Source of the DNA: Bacteroidales bacterium
Lineage (GTDB): Bacteria > Bacteroidota > Bacteroidia > Bacteroidales > JAAYJT01
DNA: 52,567 nt
Reading direction: 5' to 3'
NCBI GenBank assembly: GCA_034370405.1
Contig: JAXMKY010000080.1
Span: forward strand, 1-52,567
Shown here: positions 19,575 to 52,567 of the stretch, one piece after another
Position numbering within the stretch: position 1 is the stretch's first letter
How the letters are laid out: each line of letters opens with the position of its first letter
Notes under the pieces: generated by a model
What the model was told of the DNA's origin: nothing
Seen by the model: only the letters and a program-made list of their open reading frames with translations
Databases searched by the model: none
Made by a program: the position numbers and the translations under genes

Positions 19575-21071
19575 ATGAGGCTGTACTTTGCTTTAATATT
19601 TCTATTGATAGTTTCAGACGTTCGCACGTCGGCATTTCTCGAAAAAACGCTTTTGAAGGATGTTACAAACGAGCAATTGCACAATCATCAGCAGGCAGCA
19701 GCTTTCCTTTGGGAAACAATCCTCCGGATCAATCAATATTTCAGCGAGATTCAAAAAAACGGGCTACACGAGATTCAAATCCATGATGCAGATGCCGATA
19801 AAAAATCTCAACTAAAAACATACTTAATCAAATTGCATCAACAGCACGAAATACTGAAGATTTATATCGGGGAATATGGTTTCAGCGAAAGCCTTTTCCC
19901 GGGCGAAGAACGGACGAATAATCCTGAAACATTTATATTAGGATATGCAGCCGATATGGCACAATACGATCTCCTGCTCAGAATGGCCCGATTGAGCAGC
20001 AACAATGAGTATTTTAAAAGCATATTCCGTGAAGTAACCCAACAAGTTGCACCTGAAGAAAATTATGGTTTACTCATGGCTGAAGCTGCTTTGCCGGCAA
20101 AATACTTTCGGCTCTATTCCGGAAACATTGATCTTGAAGAACTCCTGCAAAGCACAGTACTTAGCGAACCGATGCAGAAGCTGGCCGAATATTCTTTATC
20201 CACCCACGGGATGACAGGCGCCAGTACAGTTGTGCCCTTTGCAATGGCTGCTACCGGGTTGCAAGATTATGTCAGTAGTTCAACAAGCGAGGCCTTTTAT
20301 TCTTTCCAGGTTAAGGTTTCGGATTTTGCCAGCAATCTTAGATTTTCGCTGCGCAAAGGCTATTATATAACCACCGACCAACTATCCACCCTTTATTCAT
20401 TGCTCGAACCGGGCGATATCCTCCTACAACGCAGAGAAGGCTACCTGAGCAATATTGGCATACCAGGGTTTTACACACATTCGGCTATATATACAGGAGA
20501 CTTTGAGCTCCTTGATCGGTATTTTTCTGAAGAATCGCAACAACGATGGAGATATACATTCAGTGAGTTTGTCGAAAAGCAATACCCTGAAATATTTACT
20601 GATATGATGATAAAAAACCCGCAAGGATTTTTTCCAACTACCATCGAAGCCAAAGGGGTGGGCATCATTGTGCTGCCTCTCGAAGTTTCGGGCAATGCCG
20701 ACCACTTGGCCGCACTACGTCCGAGACTGACAAAGGATGAGAAGCTGCAAGCCATCCTTTTTGCATTTGACAATTACGGAAAGCCTTATGATTATGATTT
20801 TGATTTAAAAACCGACTTACGTTTGGGATGTTCTGAACTGATCTACAAAGCTTATTTGCCTACCAAAGGCAAGAACGGGCTGACCTATACATTGCAGGAG
20901 GTTGCCGGACGCTGGATGCTGACACCCAACGATATTGCCCGGGATTTTGCCACAAACCATCGGTCGAAACAACAGCAGTTTGATTTTATTTTTTTCTTGT
21001 CCGGGGATGAAGAAAAAGGGATTGCTGAATTTAAGTCGGAGGAGGAATTTCTGGGAAGCTGGGAGAGGTAG
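19575..21071 (+). CDS. Permuted papain-like amidase (YiiX/YebB-like NlpC/P60) with a large N-terminal domain
   Basis: 'LEPGDILL...THSAIY...GKPYDYDFD...GCSELIYKAY' shows His before Cys. There is an N-terminal hydrophobic signal. Confidence 0.8.
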   Translation: MRLYFALIFLLIVSDVRTSAFLEKTLLKDVTNEQLHNHQQAAAFLWETILRINQYFSEIQKNGLHEIQIHDADADKKSQLKTYLIKLHQQHEILKIYIGEYGFSESLFPGEERTNNPETFILGYAADMAQYDLLLRMARLSSNNEYFKSIFREVTQQVAPEENYGLLMAEAALPAKYFRLYSGNIDLEELLQSTVLSEPMQKLAEYSLSTHGMTGASTVVPFAMAATGLQDYVSSSTSEAFYSFQVKVSDFASNLRFSLRKGYYITTDQLSTLYSLLEPGDILLQRREGYLSNIGIPGFYTHSAIYTGDFELLDRYFSEESQQRWRYTFSEFVEKQYPEIFTDMMIKNPQGFFPTTIEAKGVGIIVLPLEVSGNADHLAALRPRLTKDEKLQAILFAFDNYGKPYDYDFDLKTDLRLGCSELIYKAYLPTKGKNGLTYTLQEVAGRWMLTPNDIARDFATNHRSKQQQFDFIFFLSGDEEKGIAEFKSEEEFLGSWER

Positions 21072-46862: not shown

Positions 46863-47210
46863 TTATAATTTGCTGAGAATTGAGCCAAGTATATTTTTTA
46901 ACTCGGTTGATTCGTTTACGAGGTATCTACATTTTTCTATATCACCTGATTTAAGATTATTAAAAATTCTTAAAAAGTAGTTTGATTCACGCATTTCTTT
47001 CAGGGAAATACCGATTTTAGTTTTAAAGTCAGGTTTTGTAGGTGACCCCTGAGATTCTTCATAATTTGCTCCGCTTGATGTTGAGGCTTTTATGAGTTGT
47101 CTTTTCATATCCATAGTCTCAATTGTATTTTTTACAGTACGCAAATACAAAATTACATCTACCGCAAATCGTAGCAATCTTTCACACAAATCTCTCTTTT
47201 GAGCTTTCAT
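46863..47210 (-). CDS. Four-helix-bundle protein (TIGR02436 / 23S-IVP / Avd-like family)
   Basis: 'DL.ER...FA', 'QLIKASTSSGANYEE', 'DF..KI.ISLKE.RES.YFL', 'ES.EL..IL'; AT-rich. Confidence 0.9.
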   Translation of the reverse strand: MKAQKRDLCERLLRFAVDVILYLRTVKNTIETMDMKRQLIKASTSSGANYEESQGSPTKPDFKTKIGISLKEMRESNYFLRIFNNLKSGDIEKCRYLVNESTELKNILGSILSKL

Positions 47211-49452: not shown

Positions 49453-49917
49453 ATGAACAGTGATTAACGATTTTTGATTTATGATTTATAGTTTATTGTT
49501 TTGACTATTTTTCTGTGCAGTTTCAACACTTTTCACAAAAATAGATATCAACTCATTGCTTTCGTTCAGGGCAAGAATAATTTTATCTTCTGATTTATAG
49601 AGTTTTGTGCGAAATATAATTTTCAAACAGATATTGGTTTCCCTCAATTCTTTCAAAACGATTTTTATTTTGTGGATAAAATCTCTGCGAGATTCTCCGC
49701 TTTGGGCCTCACCATAATTTAATGCAGGAGACGTTCCTGATCGCAATAACTGCCCCGCCAGATGGTTTGACTCTTTTGTATCAAACATCGTTTTACTGAT
49801 TTCAACAATCAATACTGCAAAATTTATTAATCGTTCTTCAAGGTCGTGCTTATTCATACGTTTACTTTGATTCCTTGTTTCTTCTTCGCATATCATAAAT
49901 CGTTAATCATTATTCAT
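49453..49917. repeat. Inverted repeat pair bracketing the second four-helix-bundle gene
   Basis: ATGAACAGTGATTAACGATTTTTGAT (49453-49478) matches the reverse complement of 49892-49917 (ATGAATAATGATTAACGATTTATGAT) at 23/26. Both arms show 7-bp periodicity. Confidence 0.8.
49486..49857 (-). CDS. Four-helix-bundle protein (TIGR02436 family), second copy
   Basis: 'DLEERLINFA', 'QLLRSGTSPALNYGEAQSGES..DFIHK....LKELRET', 'E..ELI.IF'. ATG 49857 is preferred. Confidence 0.92.
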   Translation of the reverse strand: MNKHDLEERLINFAVLIVEISKTMFDTKESNHLAGQLLRSGTSPALNYGEAQSGESRRDFIHKIKIVLKELRETNICLKIIFRTKLYKSEDKIILALNESNELISIFVKSVETAQKNSQNNKL

Positions 49918-50010
49918 TATTCATTATTCTTCCTGATTCTTCCTGGATGGTAGGATTTACACCTCAGGTTCCGATCAGCGATAAAGGTTATACGGCAGGA
50001 TTAATTTCAT

Positions 50011-50466
50011 TTAGTTCTCTCTTAGCACATATTCGTCGTATTCGATCTCGAAGCGCAGCTTGTGTTTCGACTCTTCGATGGCCAGCGACAGGAAAAGCTG
50101 GCGCAGTTCTTCGCTTCCCGATCGTTCGGCCAGGCGGCTGTAAAGCTTGAAGGCTGCTTTTTCGCGTTTCATGGCCAGCACCAGGGCTTGTTCGTAGCTC
50201 ATTTCGGGGGTGGCTTCCGATCGAACCACAAAGTCGGCAATCTTAAGGTCTTGCACTGTGCCCGCATGGGCTTCGAGGATGCCTGTTTCCTTTACTTGCA
50301 TCAGCTTGGCTTTGTGGTCCATCTCTTCGCGTGCAAATTGGGCAAACACCGATTTCATCTCGTGGTTGGCAGCATTTTCGGAAAGAGAGGTATAGAAATC
50401 AACTGCGCTTTGCTCCTGTTCGATGGCAAAGTCGAGTATTTCGTTGACGGTGCTGAATTTATCCAT
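50011..50466 (-). CDS. Rubrerythrin/ferritin-like protein
   Basis: 'ILDFAIEQE..A..FY', 'EE..H', 'AMKRE..A...Y', 'EE.KH' diiron motifs; start at MDKFSTV. Confidence 0.9.
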   Translation of the reverse strand: MDKFSTVNEILDFAIEQEQSAVDFYTSLSENAANHEMKSVFAQFAREEMDHKAKLMQVKETGILEAHAGTVQDLKIADFVVRSEATPEMSYEQALVLAMKREKAAFKLYSRLAERSGSEELRQLFLSLAIEESKHKLRFEIEYDEYVLREN

Positions 50467-50526
50467 AGGCTTGGTTGTATAGAATTGAAGGGTCAAAGGT
50501 AGGGAAAATTTGAGGACGTGAGGGAA

Positions 50527-50575
50527 GTGATGTGGTGATGGAGTGATGGGGTGATGGAAGTGATGGAGTGATGGG
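50527..50575. repeat. Six tandem GTGATG(NN) 8-9-bp repeats
   Basis: GTGATGTG GTGATGGA GTGATGGG GTGATGGAA GTGATGGA GTGATGGG. Confidence 0.85.
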
Positions 50576-50702
50576 ATGATCATTGTTTTGAGCAAGTGTT
50601 AAATATCATAAATGAATATTTTTAGTCCTATGTAGATTTTGCATCATTCTTTTGTATATTTACGGCTTTGGAATTTTCATTGCAATACGAAACAATAAAA
50701 GC

Positions 50703-51866
50703 ATGAAACCCACGGTGGTACTGGAACCCGGAGAGCATCACGGGCAAGAGGTGGTATTTTTGATTTTTCCGAAGGACGAGCAACTCATAGCTGAAGTGAA
50801 AAGGCTGGGGGTAGCGCGCTGGAGTACAACACAGCAAAGGTGGTATATTCATAGAGAGCGATTTGTGTTATCAGATGTGTTCAATGCCTTTCAAAAATTA
50901 GCTTTTGTAGATTACAGTGCGCTGAAAAACGGCAGATCAGTTTCACCTGCCACTGCCACTGCCACTGCCCCTGCGCAACCTTCCATTAACTACAACAAGC
51001 CCAAATTGCCACAATTAAGTGCTGATAAAGCCGCCAGGATTAATGATTTCCGGTACTGGATGCAGCAAAAGCGTTACAGTAAGAATACCGTAAAGACTTA
51101 CACTGATGCCATCAGAACTTTTTTGCGCTATTATGCTCACCGCGAATCTTCGACATTATGCAATGACGATCTTGTGCGGTTCAATACAGATTATATTCTA
51201 GCGAACAAATACTCACCAAGTTACCAGAACCAGGTGATAAATGCTATCAAGCATTTTTTTGCTCAACAGTACCAAACTAAAATGGATATCCAAGGGATTG
51301 AAAGGCCCCGGCGTGGCAGCAAGTTGCCCAAGGTGATTGACAAAGGAGATATACAAGCCATGTTGGCTGGCATTTCAAATTTGAAACACAAAACGGCACT
51401 CGCATTGATTTATGGCTTGGGTTTGCGACGCTCGGAGCTGATCAATATGAAGATCAGGGATATTGATTTTAACAGAAAGGTACTGACCATTTTCAACGGG
51501 AAGGGGCAGAAAGATCGTGTGCTTCCGATAAGTGATAAGCTCATCCGTCTTATTCAGCAGCATCTGGCAACTGCAACTTCTCTTGTATATGTGATTGAAG
51601 GGCAAACCAAGGGACAGCCTTACAGTGCTACAAGCGTTGAAAAGATTTTTGAAAAGTATATGGATAGCGCAAAAAGAAATCATAATTTTACACCACATTG
51701 CCTCAGGCATTCGTATGCAACCCATTTGCTTGAGGCGGGTGTTGATTTAAGATTTATACAGGAGTTGCTAGGACACAAAAGCAGCAAAACGACAGAAATA
51801 TATACCCATGTCAGTATGAAAAACCTAAGCAAAATAAAGAACCCGACCGATGATTTCGATTTGTAA
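50703..51866 (+). CDS. Tyrosine recombinase, integron-integrase-like (SAM-like + catalytic domains) with an extra N-terminal domain
   Basis: Intact catalytic set: R (GLRRSE), K (GKGQKDR), HxxR (HCLRH), H (LLGH), Y (TTEIYTHV). 'YSKNTVKTY' marks the SAM-like domain. Confidence 0.9.
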   Translation: MKPTVVLEPGEHHGQEVVFLIFPKDEQLIAEVKRLGVARWSTTQQRWYIHRERFVLSDVFNAFQKLAFVDYSALKNGRSVSPATATATAPAQPSINYNKPKLPQLSADKAARINDFRYWMQQKRYSKNTVKTYTDAIRTFLRYYAHRESSTLCNDDLVRFNTDYILANKYSPSYQNQVINAIKHFFAQQYQTKMDIQGIERPRRGSKLPKVIDKGDIQAMLAGISNLKHKTALALIYGLGLRRSELINMKIRDIDFNRKVLTIFNGKGQKDRVLPISDKLIRLIQQHLATATSLVYVIEGQTKGQPYSATSVEKIFEKYMDSAKRNHNFTPHCLRHSYATHLLEAGVDLRFIQELLGHKSSKTTEIYTHVSMKNLSKIKNPTDDFDL

Positions 51867-51930
51867 TAAGAAACACCTTAGGGTGTACATAGCATACCAT
51901 ATGCATGTGCTAAGAAGATAAAAGGTGTGG

Positions 51931-51950
51931 ATATAAACAAGTTGCTGCGG
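51931..51950 (+). other. attI-like recombination site (ATATAAACAA-G/TTGCTGCGG)
   Basis: AAAC-AA-GTT core 74 nt after the integrase stop, similar to the attI1 core AAAACAAAGTT. Confidence 0.55.
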
Positions 51951-52319
51951 AATTTTAATCCGCGGCCCGTTCTTTGAAAAAAATTGGAAGGAGTAAAATA
52001 GCTGCTAAGCTACGGGATTTCTGAAGGAAACAGGCTCGGGAATTTTCGTATGAAACGCGAAAAAGTTCACTTTTACCAGCGTGAGTACGCTGAAATTCCC
52101 GGCAAAGTTCTGAGAAATTTCTGACATTATCAAATTTCGCAAAGAACTTTTAGCTTAGCAGCTATTTTGAAGGGTTTGTTTTTTACGGTCAAAATGAAAG
52201 CTGATAGCTCCCCGAACCGCTATCAGGCAATAATTTTGGCCTCAAAGAACGGAGCCTTTGAAGGGGATTAAAACTGTCAGTTTTTTCTAATGACTGACTT
52301 CATGAAAAAACTCCGCACA
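51941..52319. mobile_element. ORF-less, highly structured putative gene cassette
   Basis: The ends are complementary (GTTGCTGCGGA / TCCGCACA[AC]). It contains many nested perfect IRs and has no ORF of 60 aa or more in the track. Confidence 0.6.
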
Positions 52320-52567
52320 ATCGAGTAGGCTGCCCCACCAGCGAAACTGATGGGGAGAGCCTCTCACACCACTGTACGTACGGGTCTCGTATACAGCGGT
52401 TCGTCAGGTATCAGTACTATCGCTCATTACACCAATAGTACCTCTGCCTTTGTTTAGGATAAGGCTGGCAAACTCGAAGTTTGAACCTCCTTATCGAATT
52501 CGAGACAACCCAACGTTCTGCCCTTCACTGGCTTGTGAGACCTCCGCTTTATTCATCGGCTCGTTAC
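52320..52567 (-). ncRNA. Group II intron, class IIC, 3' part (end of DIII, ORF-less DIV, DV, DVI); 5' part outside the window
   Basis: On the minus strand: DIII end GAAGGGCAGAAC; DV ACCGCTGTATACGAGACCCGTACGTACAGTGGT with a CGC triad (52368-52400); DVI GAGAGGCT...AGCCTACTC with a bulged A; terminal AT at 52320-52321. Confidence 0.9.

Follow-up and report, generated by a model that had tools for sequence, protein, structure and literature searches.

Integron attC sites are imperfect palindromes with outer R boxes (..AAC and GTT..) and inner L boxes; they fold as single strands and are about 57-141 nt in length. Xer enzymes act on duplex sites. In work on the IntI4 structure, the IntI-specific insertion reportedly contacts extrahelical bases of attC. 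Large structured bacterial non-coding RNAs (ncRNAs) present in Rfam include GOLLD, ROOL, HEARO/OMEGA and OLE. ORF-less cassettes represent a sizeable and poorly understood part of integron cargo. Both they and attC sites targeted by introns are known already: one study of an oral metagenome gives 13 of 63 as ORF-less (PMC6557892), and for group IIC-attC introns another describes the layout cassette body, bottom-strand intron, rest of attC (PMC3001079).

The sequence analysed here, referred to below as the window, is a contig of 52,567 nt from the genome of an environmental bacterium of the order Bacteroidales (assembly GCA_034370405.1, contig JAXMKY010000080.1, here also C80). Its initial annotation, made from the sequence letters, described a first cassette at 51941-52319, free of ORFs and folding into a multibranched structure. 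Very probably, these 379 nt form the body of a non-coding cassette that is mobile within an integron-like system of arrays. The features referred to below are as follows (a caret marks a joint; no strand is given for structures that are not read in one direction).

50703-51863, plus strand: tyrosine recombinase of 387 aa, Xer/IntI-like, co-oriented with the cassette
51930-51943, plus strand: attI-like simple site (GATATA box, 5-nt spacer AACAA, GTT where differing sequences join)
51941-52319: ORF-less cassette body (379 nt), predicted to fold with 126 pairs into a branched rod
51941-51951, plus strand: cassette start GTTGCTGCGGA (R'-like box), pairing with the inverse core 52312-52319 plus AC
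51994-52169: core domain, a 19-bp stem (18 perfect) closing hairpins 52034-52103 and 52104-52150
52187-52241: side hairpin with 9-bp and 8-bp stems
52276-52298: small side hairpin GTCAGTT/GACTGAC
52312-52319, plus strand: leading 8 nt of the inverse-core (R''-like) box TCCGCACA^AC, which belongs to the cassette's own attC-like site and is interrupted by the intron
52320-52567, minus strand: 3' portion of a group II intron, with domains V-VI at 52320-52401, truncated by the contig end

The left joint of the cassette is the G^TT of the attI-like site, 78 nt downstream of the recombinase gene. Positions 19686-19832 of contig C9 of the same assembly, a remnant of the 3' end of the recombinase gene and its spacer, are 83% identical to the window over 149 nt up to ...AAACAAGTT and then diverge. 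Two other contigs, C114 and C145, terminate within the cassette and match its first 91 and 34 nt, respectively, at 100% identity; their left flanks differ (...GATAGTTACTA^GTTGCTG and ...GATATATACTA^GTTGCTG) and the sequences are identical after A^GTTGCTG. Therefore, with C80 and C9 sharing the left side up to AAACAAGTT and differing on the right, and C80, C114 and C145 sharing the right side from AGTTGCTG and differing on the left, the joint falls within AGTT, as at an integron core site. These junctions support the annotated first cassette and place it at a GTT box behind the recombinase gene, and a crossover in the GTT core box with differing partners on either side is what characterizes an integron gene cassette. 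Loose ends of metagenome contigs from the source study reveal two more left flanks (before 51930 in X1 and before 51941 in X2), so that at least five different left flanks are found for the same cassette, three of them within the assembly. The corresponding contig depths (40.7 versus 30 in X1 and 46.2 versus 6.5 in X2) are not copy numbers and were not used as such.

An attC-like hairpin would be expected in front of the C145 and C114 copies, but none was predicted there (z -0.4 and -1.1), from which it appears that both copies lie behind simple attI-like sites. No hairpin was predicted at the attI-like site of the window (51930-51943) either, and three of the cassette's left flanks are thus simple attI-like sites of this kind; that of C145 has no recombinase gene in front of it. 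On C9, at 19686-20140, two hairpins without ORFs, ~92 and ~195 nt in length and adjacent to each other, come after the recombinase remnant (z -4.4), and a junction sequence related to that of C9 is found in the opposite orientation near a group II intron on C18.

The cassette contains no credible reading frame, as had been annotated. The longest frames, each with a TTG start, encode 45 aa on the minus strand and 34 aa on the plus strand, and the TTG of the 45-aa frame is altered in both natural variants covering the site (52140 C>T in X3 and X14, see below).

The right boundary had been placed at 52319, and this part of the initial annotation has to be corrected. At 52319/52320 the cassette meets the 3' end of a group II intron, which lies on the minus strand and interrupts the cassette's attC-like site; intron-less copies run on beyond this point. 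The Rfam model RF00029 matches 52320-52401 on the minus strand over its full length (model positions 1-77) with 39 bits (gathering threshold 40) and an E-value of 1.5e-5; the window includes 248 nt of intron sequence. Intron-less contigs of 458-463 nt from X1 and X2 cover 51940/51941-52320 without a difference and continue from 52320 with CTTTGTATATCCGGCAATGCCAGCCCCAAC, a sequence equal to C102:62-91. On C102 the order is ...CTCCGCACAAC, TTTGT, GTATATCCG, a loop, CGGATATAC, TTTCC and GTTATCG, and this stretch folds as a ~95-nt hairpin ending in ...GGATATACTTTCC^GTTATCG. From these continuations it follows that the cassette ends in an inverse-core box, TCCGCACAAC, which is complementary to its own start GTTGCTGCGGA apart from one extra C in the latter (the C at 51945, unpaired relative to the partner as read from the sequence). 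The attC-like site after the inverse core has outer R and inner L boxes. All the parts that mark a cassette's own attC are therefore present, namely an inverse core complementary to the start, L boxes around the loop and the next GTT, with 8 nt of them in the window. The initial annotation had missed the intron, the attC-like hairpin of the intron-less copies and the multi-copy, mobile nature of the element.

Further sequences abut this intron end in X1 and X2, where loose ends occur before 52314 and 52316. The intron therefore has more than one target of this kind, and it appears to insert into such boxes repeatedly. The sequences joined in this way finish with ...CGCACA or ...GGCCACA. The reverse-transcriptase part of the intron is absent from the assembly, where TIGR04416 matches C18 and C122 only, and the genome holds no other copy of the C80 intron piece.

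The recombinase matches the Pfam families Phage_integrase (137 bits) and Phage_int_SAM_4, and its N-terminal extension of ~110 aa has no Pfam match. Against the NCBIfam model XerA_Arch ('XerA / integron integrase') it scores 217 bits (cut-off 220), and against the integron integrase model TIGR02249 192 bits (cut-off 265), the latter in two stretches. In a comparison with the IntI4 structure (2a3v), 17 residues separate the aligned stretches in the query (292-310) and 59 in IntI4 (chain 185-245), indicating that the IntI-specific insertion is missing from the recombinase. An IntI integrase with the IntI-specific additional domain, by which integrons sensu stricto are recognized, was thus not found here: the system works like an integron but does not pass the defining IntI test. 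Upstream of the recombinase gene, the spacer contains, at 50518-50580, a GTGATGG(G) tandem array that can be described with a period of 8 (6.6 copies) or of 17 (3.4 copies). Two minus-strand ORFs farther upstream, 46863-47210 (115 aa) and 49486-49896 (136 aa), presumably resemble four-helix-bundle proteins that are common in rRNA intervening sequences.

Homologues of the recombinase with 32-53% identity are present in 23 of 60 related genomes (E up to 1e-40), and many of them are located at contig ends. A box of the form ...ATA..AC.A^GTT(A/G).. was recognized by eye 100-250 nt downstream of the gene at 12 of 25 homologue loci; among the other 13, four have less than 45 nt before the contig end and nine have no visible box. 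Two of the relatives (G015 and G043) carry homologues followed by rows of near-identical palindromes of 127-130 nt (CGCTAAC...GTTAGCG), spaced 0.7-1.9 kb apart, and their recombinases show the same below-cut-off, two-stretch match to the integron integrase model and likewise lack the IntI insertion. Since the attC-like finder is unspecific when used alone (232 hits across the genome studied here), the evidence rests on these regular rows and not on single hits. In a further relative, G002, two different recombinase genes on contigs C106 and C77 are followed by the same sequence, GTTGAACTTAATGCTAAAAAG..., from the GTT onward, that is, by the same first cassette at two platforms.

In the region C100:7006-10290 the genome studied here encodes a paralogous recombinase of 588 aa (34% identical over the core) with the attI-like box GATATTTACTA^GTTACCTGC. 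Behind it comes a 1.4-kb unit that carries an SDH-type protease gene and ends in GCAGGTAAC and a 23-nt inverted repeat; an EcoRI-type methylase, a GmrSD/HNH nuclease and a protein sorted by the T9SS are encoded further downstream. The cassette-like neighbour genes in this genome have restriction-modification and similar functions.

Folding energies of the cassette body were compared with those of dinucleotide-preserving shuffles. Minimum free energies (MFE), shuffle means with standard deviations, z-scores and the number of shuffles as stable were as follows.

Plus strand, RNA fold, 379 nt: MFE -136.9 kcal/mol; shuffles -92.1 (sd 6.3); z -7.09; 0/100
Minus strand, RNA fold, 379 nt: MFE -125.9 kcal/mol; shuffles -83.6 (sd 6.0); z -7.05; 0/100
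Minus strand, DNA fold, 379 nt: MFE -81.4 kcal/mol; shuffles -40.9 (sd 4.6); z -8.74; 0/100
Core 51994-52169, RNA fold: MFE -66.6 kcal/mol; shuffles -36.5 (sd 3.7); z -8.12; 0/200

The claim that the cassette holds far more structure than expected by chance is therefore well founded. The plus-strand fold consists of 126 pairs, of which 120 are Watson-Crick and 6 G-U; that of the minus strand consists of 125 pairs with 3 G-U. All nine inverted repeats of the initial annotation were recovered where it had placed them, the 6-nt ones by reading the sequence and the others with a repeat finder, which returned an 18-nt perfect pair (51995-52012/52151-52168), an 11-nt pair (51967-77/52242-52), two 9-nt pairs (52037-45/52093-101 and 51953-61/52265-73) and 8-nt local pairs. 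That the stems are mostly compatible also proved right, as eight of the nine co-occur in the plus-strand RNA MFE fold. The ninth, CAGCGT/ACGCTG, is used in the minus-strand and DNA folds, but is replaced by neighbouring pairs in that of the plus strand.

The rod is built from the stems 51953-61/52265-73, 51964-77/52242-56 and 51978-84/52178-84 and from the 19-bp stem 51994-52012/52151-69; two hairpins occupy its centre, and two side hairpins emerge on the right arm only. The annotated end stem TGCGGA/TCCGCA is present, but pairing of the cassette start with the inverse core is general to such cassettes, and the outermost stem is simply the pairing that any cassette of the same type displays. 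The 1.4-kb unit on C100 provides an example, its start GTTACCTGC being answered by GCAGGTAAC 1.4 kb farther on, followed by the 23-nt inverted repeat. The remaining ~115 pairs of the rod are not required by this rule. Within the array the rod could extend by ~11 bp more into the flanking sites, as the flanking L boxes GGATATAAACAA and TTTGTATATCC are complementary in sequence. None of the hairpin loops is a GNRA or UNCG tetraloop. The cassette start, 51944-51966, can also form a local 8-bp hairpin (GCTGCGGA/TCCGCGGC) in place of its pairing with the far end, a possible alternative conformation. Nested self-insertion of a smaller copy, considered because of short direct repeats, was discarded, the local alignments lying within those of shuffles (fractions 0.27 and 0.17).

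No homologue of the cassette was found in about 550 related genomes, the GTDB representatives, JGI metagenomes, plasmids or phages. BLAST searches with the element gave a single 36-nt match among 60 relatives (in G005) and five matches of 25-44 nt with dissimilar flanks among 400 genomes from the same order. In 150 relatives, a covariance model built on the core (51994-52169) had no matches at E-values up to 0.1, two exact patterns were each found 0 times in the GTDB representative genomes and 0 times in IMG/VR, and blastn against plasmids and phages returned no match. An exact 19-mer occurs at 17 loci in JGI metagenome contigs, where the likeness is limited to 19-27 nt and was put down to chance. 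The Rfam check proposed in the initial annotation bore out the absence of a known family from the element: a cmscan of 50000-52567 on both strands at E up to 1 reported RF00029 only, outside the element.

The sole variants are three Logan contigs from two other studies, with 92-97% identity. X3, a sediment sample, contributed one contig covering 51968-52320 with 25 differences and one gap, and a second covering 52026-52261 with 8 differences. The metatranscriptome library X14, from a third study, yielded a 225-nt contig which is 92% alike over 52035-52197 (12 differences); presence in an RNA library does not by itself show transcription. Both are small-share runs, and only those of their contigs that span the element were used.

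The 24 substitutions of X3 record 19, an incomplete list of variants, were mapped on the plus-strand fold. Eleven are in unpaired places, two constitute one compensatory pair at 52201/52226 (C-G to T-A, the inner closing pair of the side hairpin), and two give G-T wobbles on the plus strand. About nine of the 13 substitutions at paired sites break a plus-strand pair, and five of these nine would be wobbles on the minus strand; the wobble-compatible single changes, two for the plus strand and five for the minus, are too few to decide between the strands. In X14, compensatory changes are seen at 52008/52155 (A-T to G-C) and 52006/52157 (T-A to C-G), the left side being a hand-aligned loose end, and two neighbouring pairs of the long stem are broken. 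As a test of covariation for a structured ncRNA, X3 and X14 thus offer three compensatory pairs alongside many broken ones.

The substitutions of X3 record 19 were also applied to the cassette, which was then refolded and compared with random mutants carrying the same base changes. The variant has an MFE of -126.8 on the plus strand (random mutants -114.3, sd 6.6, n=300; fraction as stable 0.023) and of -115.1 on the minus strand (random mutants -102.5, sd 6.1, n=250; fraction as stable 0.024). It appears from this one incomplete list of variants that the fold is under some constraint, equal on both strands.

The initial annotation had proposed either an undescribed structured ncRNA or a single-stranded DNA element mobilised as a cassette. 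A mobile structured cassette is indeed what was found, but its fold is kept equally on both strands, and the evidence tips slightly towards DNA. The second-ranked reading, conceivable if rather doubtful, is that the cassette encodes a large structured ncRNA, with the plus strand being read by read-through from the recombinase or from an unrecognized promoter and the cassette carrying the RNA between hosts. Its size and branched architecture recall large bacterial ncRNAs, and the plus strand folds 11 kcal/mol better than the minus, with 6 G-U pairs against 3; the similarity of a metatranscriptome contig to 52035-52197, the compensatory changes in X3 and X14 (those in X14 partly hand-aligned) and the retention of the fold in a natural variant point in the same direction. 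ORF-less cassettes encoding regulatory RNA have moreover been reported (sRNA-Xcc1, cited in PMC6557892). However, G-U pairs make up 5% of the total, fold conservation does not distinguish the strands, the X14 library is ambiguous with regard to transcription, and Rfam returned nothing for the element at E up to 1. On the plus strand there is no sigma-70-type promoter above shuffles, and no complete TTTG/TAnnTTTG pair was seen by eye. As the 150 relatives searched with the covariance model of the core gave no match, the element is not a conserved RNA family of the lineage. The cassette might instead be a promoter, terminator or insulator that sets the expression of the array, as do the Treponema ORF-less promoter cassettes (promoter activity of ORF-less cassettes, including one in first position, has been demonstrated by experiment; PMC6557892), and a terminator-like hairpin, 51944-51966, directly follows the crossover. 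We regard this as quite improbable: the T tract after that hairpin is poor, the two promoter-like sites found (0.8, sd 0.8, in shuffles) are weak (9/12) and both on the minus strand, the C145 copy has no recombinase gene ahead of its site, and 126 nested pairs are needed for neither role.

The rod may also have no function at all, being a by-product of inverted duplication or template switching that is kept palindromic by conversion between the arms. Nearly pure Watson-Crick pairing with perfect stems of 18, 11 and 9 bp, as in young DNA palindromes, would fit such an origin, as would the very narrow distribution of the element and the many X3 substitutions that break pairs. It is nevertheless unlikely, given that the arms are not mirror images (the four local hairpins are in the centre and right arm only), that no significant internal duplication was found, and that the 92-97% variants from two other studies keep the fold, one of them beating 97.7% of random mutants. 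The element occurs in several copies, lacks coding sequence, is palindromic and has contigs breaking off within it, which could also be said of a MITE, an IS end or an assembly artefact. Any of these is highly improbable, as its joints coincide with GTT and AAC boxes of recombination sites and target-site duplications are absent; the flanks, GATA..AC.A^GTT and AAC^TTTGTATATCC, contain no direct repeat, the rest of the genome, plasmids and phages gave no match, and no complete autonomous element was found that shares its ends and carries a transposase. The match to an IS or MITE end that the initial annotation had named as counting against its proposal did not turn up, and a chimera of a single assembly is ruled out by the occurrence of the same sequence and close variants in contigs from three studies.

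The reading that we tentatively prefer is that the fold acts on DNA and not on RNA, and that the element is a self-zipping, possibly selfish 'empty' cassette. Upon exposure of a single strand, the whole body would zip into a branched rod continuing the R-box stem of the recombination site. The zipped rod would hold the crossover at the cassette start against the cassette's own attC-like site, and this proximity would favour excision and re-insertion, so that a cassette reduced to its recombination structure could spread for its own sake, with no cargo needed. A role at the DNA level is favoured by the near-exclusive Watson-Crick pairing, by folding and conservation that are equal on both strands, by the absence of RNA-type tetraloops and of a plus-strand promoter signal above background, and by C9, where a second hairpin-only ORF-less unit occupies the same position (z -4.4). 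The weakness of this reading lies in the recombinase: as the IntI insertion is lacking, action on duplex DNA is conceivable, and the enzyme may act on double-stranded sites, leaving the rod without a DNA role. The broken pairs of X3 (~9 of 13 substitutions at paired sites) and the X14 homologue in an RNA library also speak against it, and a palindrome can be kept by arm-to-arm gene conversion without function. That we are dealing with a new type of protein-free mobile element, a hairpin-only, self-complementary cassette parasitising a Bacteroidota-type integron-like recombination system and spreading solely by its fold, or else with a new large structured RNA whose DNA form travels as a cassette, is put forward as a possibility in which our confidence is low.

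Short, mobile and extremely structured, with a fold that is kept in natural variants, the cassette makes a clean test case, and the array type is of interest on account of a recombinase without the domain thought to define integron integrases. Should the fold work on DNA, cassettes could evolve as selfish structures and cassette bodies could join in site folding; should it work as RNA, a new large ncRNA would be spread by cassette capture. A full-text literature search, with supplements outside its scope, found no report of a rod-like non-coding cassette and none of Bacteroidota arrays with a recombinase lacking the IntI insertion.

Compared with described systems, the element shares with MITEs and with palindromic repeats of the REP/BIME type its multi-copy, non-coding and hairpin-forming character, but it has no terminal inverted repeats with target duplication, its joints being recombinase core sites. 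Like GOLLD, ROOL, HEARO/OMEGA and OLE, it is a few hundred nt long, multibranched and, as those often are, on mobile DNA; unlike them, it has no Rfam match, very few G-U pairs, strands that fold alike and no homologue family that could be found. The right boundary resembles the targets of group IIC-attC introns (e.g. S.ma.I2; PMC3001079) in position and strand: the intron separates the cassette body from the remainder of attC and occupies the bottom strand, against the direction of the cassettes. Only 248 nt of it are available here, its 5' exon falling outside the window and being absent from the assembly, and it is likened to those introns without being assigned to a class. The ORF-less integron cassettes of PMC6557892 (the Treponema promoter type and Xanthomonas sRNA-Xcc1) are equally geneless, bounded by core sites and possible in first position, but the present one lacks a promoter consensus, occurs behind several flanks, accompanies a recombinase that is no canonical IntI and has as its body one long-range branched rod (z -7 to -8.7). 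As with attC sites, the first bases of the cassette pair with its own inverse core; here, however, 379 nt outside the attC-like hairpin proper are involved, extending the R stem into the cassette body.
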